Positions 57,266-60,300 of a DNA stretch of 64,000 bases are shown one piece after another. The stretch lies in NCBI GenBank assembly GCA_015059015.1, contig SVBG01000001.1, positions 10,026-74,025 of the forward strand, given 5' to 3'. Source of the DNA: Erysipelotrichaceae bacterium (GTDB lineage Bacteria > Bacillota_I > Bacilli_A > ML615J-28 > CAG-313). How positions within the stretch are numbered: the stretch's first letter is position 1; every line of letters begins with the position of its first letter. The notes under the pieces were generated by a model. The model was given only the letters and a program-made list of their open reading frames with translations, was not told the DNA's origin and made no database searches. The position numbers and the translations under genes were made by a program.

Positions 57266-57382
57266 ATGAAAAAAGAATTTGAAACTCCCACAATTGAAAT
57301 CATCAATTTTGATGAAAACATTAATTTAGGACCAAATGACGAATGGTATGATTCAAATGTTGATATGGGTGGGTGGATTTAA
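57266..57382 (+). CDS. Conserved 38-aa peptide (paralogue 3 of 3), identical in protein sequence to the copy at 27726 and translationally coupled to the LRR gene
   Basis: A conserved ~160-bp upstream region is shared with locus 27560-27725. The RBS is GGAGGAAAATT. The stop lies 2 nt before the ATG at 57385. Confidence 0.6.
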   Translation: MKKEFETPTIEIINFDENINLGPNDEWYDSNVDMGGWI

Positions 57383-57384
57383 TT

Positions 57385-60300
57385 ATGAAGAAGAATTTAT
57401 TTAAATTATTATTTGTAATGTTATTCTTATTCACAGTTTCATTTACATTTGTTTATAATAATAATACAGATGTTTTAGCTGATGAAATAGAAACTGAAGA
57501 AGTAGTAGAACCTTCACTTAATATATATAAAAAGAATATATCATATGCAAGTGAAATCTATATTATGTATGCAGTTTCATATGAAGGAATAGATGTAACA
57601 ACAAATCCAGTTAAAATGTTATTCTATAACTCTGTTCAAGATGAATATACACCATCTACTGCATCATATGTAGTAGAATCTACTGGTAGTGCAACAATCA
57701 GTGGTGTAAGTTGTCAAATATTTGCATCTAATGGACTTGCTGCTAAACAAATGACAGATGATATCTACGCAAGAGCATATGTAGAAATTGCTGAAGAAAC
57801 TATTTATTCAGATGTAGTAAAATATAGTGTGTTAGAATATTATTATGAAATTAAAGAAGCAGGTACTGTTTCTACAAATATCTTAAACTTACTTGAAGCA
57901 ATGGTTAACTATGGTGCAGCAGCACAAACTAATTTTAACTATAATACAGAAAAGTTAGCTAACGCAACATATTATAAAGTAAATGTAGAAAATACAGTAT
58001 TACCCGATGGCTTTACAAGTGGAAGATTTAAGGCTGAAGAACAAGTAATGCTTACTGCACCTGAAAAAGAAGGTTATATATTTACTGGATGGACTAATTC
58101 AAATGAAGAACTAGTATCAACTGATGTAACTTATACATTAACAGTAACACAAGATGAAACATTAACTGCTAATTATGAAGCAGAAGTAGCAGTTACACCA
58201 GTAACACTAACTCTAACAAAAGAAGCAGCGTATGACGCAACAGCAGATACACTTGACTTACCATCTACTGTAACATTTAATTATAATAATGAAACAGTAA
58301 CAGAAAATGTTACGTGGGATACAACTTCATTTGTAGTAAACAAAATCGGTAAACAAAAACTATATGGAACATTATCTAATGATTCATATAAAGTAAATGA
58401 ACTAAGTATTGAAATAGATGTGCTTCCTTATACATTTAGTTTAAATGAAGAAACTAATGAATATTCTATTACTAAATATTATGGAACATCTGAAGAATTA
58501 AACTTGCCCGCATCATTTAACTCTATTAAGGTAACGTCTGTTGGTTTATACGCTATTAGAAGCAATAATATTAGAATATTAAGAATACCTAAAGAAATTA
58601 TAAACTTTGATGAAAATGCATTTTTTGGACCTAAGGAAATTTCTGAATTATATTATTATGGAACTCTAGAAGATTGGTGCAATATTAAATTTTATAACTA
58701 TATTGCAAATCCGATGGGATGTCAAGATCATAATACATTTCAAATTGTTTATATGTTAGATGATAAAAATGAATTCTATTCTTTAAATGGTATTATAATA
58801 CCTGATTCGGTAGAATATATTGGTAATAGTCAATTTTATAATATGGATGGACTTACTAGTGTATTTATTTCAAAAAATGTTAAAACAATTGAAGAAAATG
58901 CATTTAGTGGTTGTTTAAAATTGGAAAATGTTGTTTTTGAAGAAGATAGTGTTTTAACTGAAATTAAATCAGGAGCTTTCGGTTCATATACTAAAATATC
59001 TTCTATAAATCTACCAAAATCATTAGAAAAAATAGGTAGCAATGCTTTTAGTGGGTGTCAAACATTAACATCAATTACATTGCATAATAATATTGCATCA
59101 ATAGGTTATAGTGCTTTTTTTGGATGCATTAGTTTATGCGATGTATATTTTGATGGGAATATTGAAGGTTGGATGAATATTACTTTTGGGGATGAAAGAT
59201 CTAATCCTGTTTATAGTTCTAATAAAATTTTTATGAAAAATGATGATAATGAGTATTATGAAGTAAATGAAATTCAAATACCGTCTAATATAGATACAAT
59301 AAATAATTTTACATTTTCGGGATTTAATTTTATTGAAAATATTAGTTTACCAGACAATATTATTACAATAGGTGATGGTGCTTTCCGTGAATGTAGCGGT
59401 TTAACATCTATCAATTTTTCGAATAATTTAAAAACAATTGGTGAAAGTGCTTTTTATAAATGTATTAATTTAGAAAAAATTGAAATACCATATAGTGTTC
59501 AAAATATAAATTATAGTGCTTTTAGTTATTGTACTAATTTATTAGAAGTAGTTTTTGAAGAAAACAGTAATTTAAATAAATTAGGTAGTTATGCATTTAG
59601 AGCATGTAGTAGTTTGAAAAGTATTAATATTCCTAATAATATAACTAAAATCGATATTTATACTTTTTATGATTGTGTAAATTTAATCAAAATCTCAATT
59701 CCAAATACTATTGAAGAAATATGTGATTACGCTTTTTATAATTGTAATCAATTACTAAATGTGGAATTTGAATCAACTAGTAGATTAACGAAAATTGGTC
59801 AATATGCTTTCTATAACTGTACAAGTTTACAAAGTTTTAGTATTCCAACAGGAGTGAAATTAATTCAAGCATGTACATTTACTAACTGTATAAGCTTATT
59901 AAATATAGTTATACCTTCGAGTATTACATATTTATCTGGTTTTAACGGTTGTGTTAATCTTAAAGTAATTTATAATTTATCTAATTTGGAACTTACAATT
60001 GGTTCTACTGATAATGGATGTGTTGCATATTACGCAAAATATATTCATAATGAACTTCCAAGAGAAATAGCATTAGAAAAAGAAGTTGCATATGATGCAA
60101 CTTTAGATACTCTTGAATTACCTGAAACTGTTACATTTACATACAATGAAGAAGAAATAACACAAAATGTTACTTGGGATACAAGTACATTTGTTGTAAA
60201 TCAAATTGGTGAACAAGTAATATATGGAACATTTAGTGATGATGAATTATATGATCAATATAATATTAAGCGCGGTTATTTATATACTACTATAGATGTA

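Follow-up and report, generated by a model that had tools for sequence, protein, structure and literature searches.

The 64,000-nucleotide window analysed here (Erysipelotrichaceae bacterium, contig SVBG01000001.1, positions 10,026 to 74,025 of the forward strand; hereafter, the window) contains three open reading frames (ORFs) of 38 codons, each located upstream of a gene encoding a large secreted protein with leucine-rich repeats (LRR) of the LRR_5 type. Results of our analysis indicate that these ORFs are genuine peptide genes of a family recognizable by a C-terminal tail of 11 residues with a Gly-Trp pair (GW-tail), that the same tail occurs on two types of peptides, one without a signal peptide (type 1) and one with a membrane or lipoprotein signal (type 2), and that the peptide genes precede genes of secreted proteins with one particular domain of immunoglobulin (Ig)-like fold, designated by us the N-domain. 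The GW-tail family and the N-domain cassette are not described in Pfam, NCBIfam, PDB or the literature that we searched. The reading that we favour, tentatively and with slightly less than even confidence, is that the tail may be a ligand of the N-domain, and that the lipoprotein form of the peptide may tether an adhesin devoid of an anchor of its own.

Small peptides with a common C-terminal tail

The peptide genes of the window and their signals are as follows:
12244-12360, plus strand: type 1 peptide gene of locus 1 (reading, dN/dS; same layout in the related strains L064-L066)
12360-12527, plus strand: type 2 peptide gene of locus 1 (55 aa), encoding a hydrophobic signal (VLAC) that is joined by an acidic linker to the tail EFYDENVDPDGWI (reading; overlaps the type 1 gene via TAATG)
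12544-12581, plus strand: intrinsic-terminator-like hairpin (16 bp and a T-run) 3' of both peptide genes (sequence scan)
27726-27842, plus strand: type 1 peptide gene of locus 2, a duplicate of locus 3 (direct reading, locus comparison)
57254-57259, plus strand: AGGAGG Shine-Dalgarno (SD) sequence of the locus 3 peptide gene (-12.9 kcal/mol)
57266-57382, plus strand: type 1 GW-tail peptide gene of locus 3 (38 aa, MKKEFETPTIEIINFDENINLGPNDEWYDSNVDMGGWI; direct reading, dN/dS, homologues)

Direct reading of the three 38-codon ORFs gives the shared product MKKEFETPTIEII[N/Y]FD..INLGP.DEWYDSNVDMGGWI*. The first-pass annotation of this DNA took the small ORF for a real peptide gene, and this is upheld by its homologues in many metagenomes and by the comparison of loci 1 and 2, whose peptide ORFs differ at 13 synonymous and 5 non-synonymous positions (dN/dS = 0.03), all six differences in the tail-coding half being synonymous. 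The 38-aa ORF is thus under strong purifying selection. Loci 2 and 3 share over 90% identity between about -150 and +900, counted from the peptide start, and are unrelated outside this interval; as products of one recent duplication they are counted once here, and the junction that they share is treated as a single evolutionary event.

The SD sequence of the locus 3 peptide gene is among the strongest in the window, as judged by the energies of duplexes with the canonical 16S anti-SD tail in 27 window genes (range from about -1 to -13 kcal/mol, most between -6 and -13). An extended -10-like sequence, TGTTATAAA, at 57228-57236 may be a part of the promoter of this gene, as inspected by eye; a promoter scan revealed no full -35/-10 pair upstream of it. 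At locus 1, a promoter-like site is present at 12182-12210.

In DNA of 27% GC, such as that of the window, 38 codons stay open by chance with a probability of ~3-4% per frame position, according to our own composition estimate, and the ORF could in principle be accidental, or a mere spacer that furnishes a ribosome-binding site and encodes a peptide without function. This reading, the probability of which we consider negligible, is effectively refuted by conservation: besides the dN/dS value and the strong SD sequence that the ORF has of its own, homologues at the amino acid level are found across Clostridia and Bacilli, in DNA of 27% to about 55% GC.

The tail of the family, [W/F]-x-D-[E/D/S]-N-[V/L]-D-x-x-G-W-[I/V/T]-COOH, is free of indels. 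Among the 34 compiled sequences of both types, Trp at position 0 is present in all 34, Asn at -6 and Asp at -8 in 32 each, Gly at -1 and Asp at -4 in 31 each, and Trp or Phe at -10 in 29. The codons of the DENVD segment are uniform, GAC GAA AAC GTA GAC, in loci of about 38% to 55% GC. Type 1 peptides comprise 35-46 aa and have no signal peptide; their N-terminus, M[Y/F]E.P.IE.I.F..EDV[I/V]RTS, is joined to the tail by a variable linker. In one further locus (L057, 1072-1206), a 44-aa ORF located after a gene of a 401-aa coiled-coil-rich protein combines a type-1-like leader, MDLIFILDEIVRTSP, with an unrelated tail, ...DETPPVGGDDLFG, which suggests that the leader may be a module used with other 'cores' as well.

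Type 2 is exemplified by the 55-aa product of locus 1, MSKLLKYFLIGFVAIAAIVLACTVYSCSLDDDTDKDKDDEIGEFYDENVDPDGWI. The first-pass annotation had noticed the coupling of its ORF to the preceding one by TAATG, and rightly so, but it had missed the C-terminal motif behind the membrane/lipoprotein signal: the 38-mer ends with EWYDSNVDMGGWI and the 55-mer with EFYDENVDPDGWI, which is the same tail. This is the most informative clue to function. Type 2 peptides are predicted lipoproteins, as their n- and h-regions are followed by a lipobox of the form [LVI][ASTVI][GAS]C, such as LTGC (L054c), VTGC (L046), AIGC (L017) or LPAC (L057); the window copy has a relaxed variant, VLAC, and the type 2 peptide of L026 lacks the Cys and should possess a transmembrane segment or a signal anchor instead. 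The linker between the signal and the tail is acidic, rich in Ser, Asp and Glu, and ranges from 25 to about 90 residues. Lipoboxes combined with acidic linkers of variable length would be typical of a surface tether. Two type 2 genes are present in L054, and L046 apparently has only type 2. On the minus strand of L017 (7668-7690), only 10 codons (MEKVKKRRFY*) can be read from the ATG in the TAATG junction; the lipoprotein frame is shifted by 1 nt, and an ATG within the Gly codons of type 1 otherwise gives access to it. The same is seen in three assemblies and could be a homopolymer error or a frameshift.

In Pfam and NCBIfam, no model matches either peptide type, even at E<=10. The Tryglysin RiPP model NF050036 was considered and rejected, as it aligned only with residues 1-11 (MKKEF...) at 12.5-13 bits vs. 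a cut-off of 34 (E=0.12-0.16). Protein searches revealed near-identical peptides of 38-39 aa in public metagenomes, and queries of 44 and 55 aa retrieved near-identical relatives only. A type 1 hidden Markov model (HMM) run against 1.84 billion representatives yielded 12 matches at E<=1e-3, namely 10 peptides, corresponding to about ten further clusters of the MKKEFETPTIEII... subtype, and two repetitive proteins, which were ignored; short ORFs are probably under-called. Scans with a degenerate DNA pattern gave 35 matches in genomes, five of them true family members, most of the others representing an unrelated Acidobacteriota enzyme with an internal NVDxxGWI, and 17 matches in metagenomes, where six contigs carry true members. 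The members come from Clostridia metagenome-assembled genomes (MAGs) of ruminant guts (L004, L017), Candidatus Scatosoma of the class Clostridia (L010), a 27%-GC Bacilli MAG syntenic with the window (L026), and the metagenome contigs L042, L046, L047, L049, L054, and L056. The 'Bacilli bacterium' MAG contigs with synteny to the window are those of L026 and of GCA_045536115.1.

The N-domain and its association with the peptides

The proteins encoded downstream of the peptides in the window are:
12838-16758, plus strand: secreted LRR_5 protein of locus 1, 1306 aa, with the N-domain at ~12949-13317 (Pfam, N-domain HMM)
27845-31228, plus strand: secreted LRR_5 protein of locus 2, 1127 aa, with the N-domain at ~27962-28339 (Pfam, N-domain HMM)
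57385-62325, plus strand: secreted BspA-type LRR_5 protein of locus 3, 1646 aa, with a signal peptide (LRR_5 E=1.5e-257; Big_4, Flg_new_2)
57502-57879, plus strand: N-domain of the 1646-aa protein, residues ~40-165 (HMM, alignment, AlphaFold2 model)

BspA-like LRR proteins rank with the largest and most abundant adhesins predicted for uncultured gut Firmicutes. By their matches to PF13306 (LRR_5), all three proteins of the window are clearly assigned to this group: the scores are 587-840 bits vs. a cut-off of 27.7, in 8-10 stretches, with E values from 1e-179 to 1e-257. The credible start of the genes of loci 2 and 3 is the ATG that opens MKKNLFKLLF... and a signal peptide, and gives 1127 and 1646 aa; the latter size had been reported correctly, and the former had been given as 1131 aa because the count began at an in-frame GTG inside the Gly codons of the peptide. 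Pfam searches and inspection of the termini revealed no LPXTG, SLH, CWB or C-terminal transmembrane anchor in these proteins, and we know of no generally established way in which BspA-like proteins without LPXTG, SLH or CWB are retained on the cell.

The N-domain is an Ig/FN3-like beta-sandwich of nine strands followed by three helices in the AlphaFold2 model (pLDDT 92.8, pTM 0.85), which was built from a 33-sequence alignment. No Pfam or NCBIfam model matches it even at E<=10, its profile has no match among PDB sequences, and fold searches give only generic Ig, FN3 and carbohydrate-binding module matches (TM <= 0.44). The alignment contains the conserved motif ..AAK.MTDD.., with a nearly invariant Lys in ..GLAAK... 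The domain also occurs apart from leucine-rich repeats. The third gene of the L017 cassette, which is followed by a terminator, encodes a secreted protein of 140 aa that aligns with residues ~40-165 of the LRR proteins of the window and is the bare domain; other downstream proteins comprise 244-304 aa, and those with LRR_5 1000-1650 aa.

Readable flanks were available for 15 loci, from Clostridia and Bacilli metagenomes, and in every one of them the peptide gene is located directly 5' of a gene encoding a secreted N-domain protein. Starting from the peptides, the N-domain HMM matches the product of the next ORF in every locus of sufficient length: the three loci of the window and L017, L039, L042, L047, L049, L054, and L056. 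Starting from the N-domain, that is independently of the peptides, eight look-ups were made, one of them (L060) in a sequence that starts within the domain and lacks upstream DNA; in the remaining seven, a peptide is encoded directly upstream. Six of these seven peptides, next to the N-domain proteins P0010, P0017, P0009, P0020, P0040, and P0032 (L036-38, L039, L057, L058, L059, L062/63), have the canonical tail. The seventh, next to the divergent P0041 (L061), is a leader-type peptide with a divergent tail. The N-domain homologue of L061 (322-1185) is the most divergent one, and the preceding peptide has a YESPTA...LQSS leader and the tail NEGAWMPLNVTIPDNSSVE, which hints that the tails may co-diversify with the N-domain.

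The gene order is constant and all genes are on the same strand: type 1, type 2 (in zero, one or two copies), and the N-domain gene. Otherwise, the flanks carry unrelated housekeeping genes (serA/serC, grpE, dnaJ, prfA, fba, nrdG), and the window proteins without the N-domain, i.e., a protein with MACPF and Flg_new modules and a 759-aa amidase, have no such peptide. The proposed link between the peptide and the secreted protein encoded downstream is therefore borne out by the comparative loci. The LRR region is not the partner: since the N-domain also occurs bare or in proteins without LRR, the association is with the N-domain and not with LRR_5. In L039, a gene (3254-3745) of a 163-aa protein with a SipW-type signal (..TTTYAWFTGG..), located after a gene of a 1350-aa protein, lies directly 5' of the type 1 peptide gene; we take this protein to be TasA/camelysin-like.

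Junctions between the peptide and adhesin genes

The TAA stop codon of the peptide is followed, at loci 2 and 3, by 'tt' and the ATG of the LRR_5 gene (27842/27845 and 57382/57385), as had been read before. The element in question is:
57368-57377, plus strand: GGTGGGTGGA, the Gly-Gly-Trp-Ile codons of the peptide and at the same time the SD-like run of the LRR gene (-10.2 kcal/mol, 8-nt spacer)

Together with its copy at locus 2 (27828-27837), this is the sole purine-rich run complementary to the anti-SD in the 25 nt before the LRR ATGs, in agreement with the first-pass annotation, which regarded the Gly-Gly-Trp codons as the only SD-like sequence of the adhesin genes; the duplex energy is typical for the window. 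The SD-like stretch in the final codons of the peptide contains GGTGGGTGG. At locus 1, the GGW codons before the type 2 ORF show a complementarity of -8.1 kcal/mol. Type 1 and type 2 genes overlap by TAATG in the window, and they do so too in L026, L017 and three related strains (L064-66); at each of these junctions the SD-like run comes from the Gly-Trp codons, forming a perfect GGAGG in L017. Judging from their sequence, the invariant Gly-Trp codons (GGN-UGG) offer a credible SD sequence to any abutting ORF.

The tight coupling of peptide and adhesin genes does not extend to the family as a whole. In at least 10 other lineages, the N-domain gene has its own SD sequence of the AGGAG/GGAGG type, 11-60 nt past the peptide stop codon, and at locus 1 the terminator and about 300 nt separate the peptide genes from the LRR gene, which agrees with the layout described earlier for this locus (peptide, TAATG-coupled 55-aa ORF, terminator, separate LRR gene). 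Among the compared sequences, only the duplicated loci of the window show the 2-nt junction with the adhesin gene, and the tight coupling is not conserved; the location of the SD sequence within codons is a by-product of invariant Gly-Trp codons beside the next gene and not a conserved principle. An SD sequence within the codons of a coupled upstream ORF is an ordinary feature of bacterial gene organisation.

A search for RNA families with Rfam models revealed two tRNAs only and none at the peptide-LRR junction, and the predicted RNA fold of the junction is no better than that of shuffled sequences (z = 0.58). In the minimum free energy (MFE) fold of locus 3, GUGGGUG of the Gly-Gly-Trp codons (57369-57375) pairs with CUCCCAC of the Thr-Pro-Thr codons (~57286-57292); the counterpart of this pairing at locus 1 is CCAAC/GUUGG in a shifted register (12265-12271 with 12350-12356). 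The model weakly suggests that, owing to such a pairing, the SD-like run would stay inaccessible before translation of the peptide ORF.

Translationally coupled leader ORFs and arrest peptides, such as SecM-secA, MifM-yidC2, VemP-secDF2, and TnaC, provide a precedent for a regulatory upstream ORF. The tail would then act in the ribosome tunnel near the stop codon, or its acidic run would destabilise the ribosome, and in this way it would gate translation of the downstream gene until a leader or signal relieves the arrest. Like the known arrest peptides, the GW-tail peptides are encoded by small upstream ORFs, sometimes with a signal peptide, have a conserved C-terminus, and end by the start codon of the next gene with the SD sequence inside the ORF. 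The motif is located at the extreme C-terminus, before the stop codon and the next ORF, and is common to unrelated N-termini; the tails are strongly acidic; in the window, L026 and L017, the stop codon overlaps the next start codon or lies 2 nt from it, with the SD sequence in the last codons; both the SD sequence and the ATG would be occluded by a ribosome pausing on the stop codon; and GUGGGUG pairs with CUCCCAC inside the ORF in the MFE fold. Nevertheless, we consider this role unlikely. It does not explain why the peptide tracks one N-terminal domain and not a regulon or a secretion factor; the gene downstream of the GW-tail peptide encodes cargo and not secretion machinery. Coupling is not family-wide, as in most lineages the downstream gene has a strong SD sequence of its own 11-60 nt off and a terminator intervenes at locus 1, and the RNA fold does not exceed the shuffles. 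In addition, type 2 peptides of 48-57 aa would be too short for translocon pulling with the tail still in the tunnel, given the known lengths of SecM, MifM and VemP, the Ser/Asp/Glu linkers of variable length resemble tethers, and the peptides contain none of the known classes of arrest motif (RAxP etc.).

The location of type 1 genes, which have a very strong SD sequence and no export signal in their product, directly before the gene of the partner, as well as the tight coupling at two loci of the window, would also fit a cytoplasmic escort that binds the nascent N-domain or signal region and keeps the adhesin export-competent, the coupling supplying the peptide in cis. Such a function seems very unlikely to us. 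The identical tail on extracytoplasmic lipoproteins places the partner outside the cell, binding of a folded beta-sandwich would hinder Sec export, and L046 apparently encodes no type 1 peptide.

Possible roles of the tail and of the type 1 leader

That one and the same tail is found on a tether as well as on a soluble peptide, and in each case is encoded together with one Ig-like domain, finds its simplest explanation in the tail being a ligand. Of the roles suggested in the first-pass annotation, it is the co-produced ligand whose direction the comparative data favour, and the regulatory upstream ORF is less favoured. According to the scheme that we propose, the 38-aa ORF would be a highly expressed gene of a small protein of an undescribed family, with the C-terminal tail as its defining feature, and the tail is presented on two chassis, the soluble type 1 and the membrane- or lipid-anchored type 2, the linker of the latter serving as a flexible tether that puts the tail outside the membrane. 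The tail would bind the N-domain by a Ca2+-bridged or strand-addition contact, and the type 2 peptide would hold the BspA-like adhesin at the cell surface. Type 1 may represent the untethered version, acting as a cap or a competitor, or being a processed and exported form. Possibly, the peptide and adhesin genes abut at loci 2 and 3 because the type 2 gene and the spacer have been lost there, and the Gly-Trp codons would then serve as the ribosome-binding site of the adhesin gene, permitting termination-reinitiation coupling and co-production.

Several modes of non-covalent attachment are used by Firmicutes, including cohesin-dockerin pairs with anchoring scaffoldins, GW modules of InlB and Ami, and SLH and CWB2 domains. 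The proposed system is like them in combining an anchorless secreted multidomain protein and a beta-sandwich module with a short acidic D-x-N-x-D partner at the envelope. It differs in that there is no sequence or profile similarity, the dockerin-like element has ~11 residues and is located on a separate lipoprotein or peptide of 35-130 aa, and the interaction is deduced from the genes; the GW modules of InlB/Ami (~80 aa) are unrelated to the Gly-Trp of the tail. The dockerin and EF-hand models of Pfam gave no match to the tail at E<=10, D-x-N-x-D being invariant and position 6 variable. A Ca2+-bridged contact is plausible in view of the invariant D-x-N-x-D and of both partners being acidic.

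Ig-like folds are completed by segments of other polypeptides in donor-strand complementation, TasA/TapA fibres and pilins, a principle exploited in SpyTag/SpyCatcher. The features in common here are the Ig-like receptor, the short peptide with invariant Asp/Asn, the nearly invariant Lys of the N-domain, and the TasA-like gene that neighbours the cassette of L039; TapA is among the weak Foldseek matches to the N-domain (8aif_A, E=0.025). The differences are that the fold matches are generic (TM <= 0.44) and that the AlphaFold2 model shows no open groove judgeable from the summary output. As to BspA-like LRR_5 proteins themselves, the N-domain and its partner peptides are not included in any family description found in the literature searched, and a search for literature on BspA with a small ORF or an anchor found nothing relevant.

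Certain observations weigh against the tail being a ligand that tethers the N-domain. Most loci carry type 1 only, and type 1, having no export signal, would not meet an extracellular domain unless it were processed and exported. Two tails extend past GW[I/V/T] (GWIKK, KWIP), which argues against a strict need for a free carboxylate. At position 6, the DxNxD loop lacks the Gly of EF-hand/dockerin loops; a Gly is found at position 8. The N-domain in its AlphaFold2 model looks complete, with no obvious missing strand. Moreover, some N-domain genes are interrupted near ..AAK.MTDD..: a 1-nt deletion in a C-run is present at ~565 of L062/L063, in two samples, an in-frame TAA at ~3364 of L059, and the gene of L017 (7017-7040) stops right behind ..IDGQE, with a terminator next to it. 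Pseudogenes, phase variation or assembly errors could account for these cases.

The leader of type 1 peptides brings in a further possibility, namely that they are precursors of peptides made by the ribosome and modified after translation (RiPPs). In such a case, the leader would be bound by a distant PqqD-like RiPP recognition element (RRE), the peptide would be modified, for instance by phosphorylation, cleaved near ..RT|S.. and exported to serve as a signal, a matrix component or an antimicrobial, and the link to the N-domain would reflect co-regulation and not binding of the tail by the domain. The RRE-binding motif of lasso and LPP leaders is [Y/W]xxPx[L/V/I/F/A], and the consensus of LPP leaders is YxxPxVLxHQxIxFETxxS, cleaved after T, with highly variable LPP cores behind it (Popov et al., Nat Commun 2026, PMC13381572). 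The type 1 N-terminus, [Y/F]xxPx[I/L]..I.F..EDV[I/V]RTS, resembles both (PMC13381572), and type 1 peptides share with these precursors their size, the [Y/F]xxPx[I/L] motif with a hydrophobic/F stretch behind it, and the conserved ..T-S.. before the linker. Leaders of lasso precursors have YxxPxL and Thr at -2; among type 1 peptides, about half, those of the window included, contain [Y/F]xxPx[I/L], and ..RTS.. is conserved in many relatives but not in the window peptides, which have ..NINLGP... The surroundings in L059 are reminiscent of RiPP clusters of the LPP/paeninodin type: a PqqD-family gene (PF05402, 24.1 bits vs. a cut-off of 23.4) and a fragment of an HprK-related kinase gene (TIGR04355, E=2.5e-5) are located directly 5' of the type 1 gene (2067-2825 for the two), within a polysaccharide locus with adjoining LicD, flippase and polysaccharide genes. 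Furthermore, the peptides of L057 and L061 share the kind of leader and differ in tails, and the neighbour of L039 has a SipW-type signal and is TasA-like.

Despite these resemblances, we regard the RiPP precursor reading as rather doubtful. An RRE, a maturase, a leader peptidase and an exporter are absent from the window and from 14 of the 15 loci. Pfam and NCBIfam searches revealed no lasso cyclase and no B1/B2 peptidase among the neighbours in the window and the compared loci, the only PqqD being that of L059, and the genes of the LPP cluster (SpI-like peptidase, RRE, HprK-like kinase, NTP transferase, MsbA-like exporter) are missing from the 64-kb window and present as a partial set in L059, where the N-domain gene has the in-frame stop. 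In about half of the leaders, another residue takes the place of the Pro in the motif. The conserved part of the GW-tail peptides is the C-terminal tail, whereas LPP cores are variable, and the same 'core' is found behind Sec/lipoprotein signals, which one would not expect of a RiPP. Neither the tails nor the leaders are included in the LPP supplementary lists (PMC13381572). A direct fit to the LPP consensus was rejected, as only the YxxPx[V/I] start and the later F...T..S resemble it and the register differs. A lasso-core interpretation (G1...D7-9...W plug) was dropped too, as it fits few peptides (L010, L054), the linker varies and there is no cyclase. Finally, the radical SAM protein encoded beside locus 1 (231 aa) is not a maturase: it is NrdG2 (TIGR02495, 214 bits vs. 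a cut-off of 131), without SPASM or RRE. By analogy, the context of L059 makes RiPP-like processing and export of type 1 possible.

The ligand reading and such processing may also be combined. The GW-tail on a tiny lipoprotein would then be a natural tag and the N-domain an Ig-like 'catcher', the two being bound via Ca2+ or covalently, through the invariant Asn/Asp of the tail and the Lys of the N-domain, with the leader-bearing soluble type 1, processed in a RiPP-like manner, controlling attachment and release; we consider this extended scheme improbable as a whole. If binding of the tail by the N-domain is true, biotechnology might make use of the two as a compact, naturally occurring tag/receptor pair. 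The peptide-domain cassette offers a concrete hypothesis that can be tested cheaply, with an 11-residue peptide vs. a 130-residue domain, and it adds two new families for annotation, the N-domain and the tail peptides, the latter often missed by gene callers.

Outside the cassettes, the window carries the sporulation genes yabP and yabQ, and also murA. The gene of the NrdG-type activase (11466-12161) and that of NrdD (17708-20065; PF13597, E=9e-191, with an ATP-cone and a C-terminal glutaredoxin) are 5.5 kb apart on opposite strands, with locus 1 and a TrxB-like gene between them, and the same arrangement is found in related strains. Upstream of locus 2, the region 26354-27490 contains a 467-nt tandem duplication (26548-26847 and 27015-27314, 94% identical) with three promoter-like units (TTTACAA...TATACTATAAG, ~26354, 26553, and 27020), CCTCC...GGAGG hairpins and T-runs; it has no Rfam match, and the units may be small RNA genes or decayed repeats. 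Other genes of the window encode a 1078-aa protein of which only a CvpA-like N-terminus is recognised (23127-26363), a giant membrane-anchored protein of 4557 aa (32149-45822), an AbiEii toxin with a DUF6088 partner (51723-53256, minus strand), and a 1040-aa protein with a lipoprotein signal and MACPF, Flg_new_2 and GLUG modules (53853-56975).

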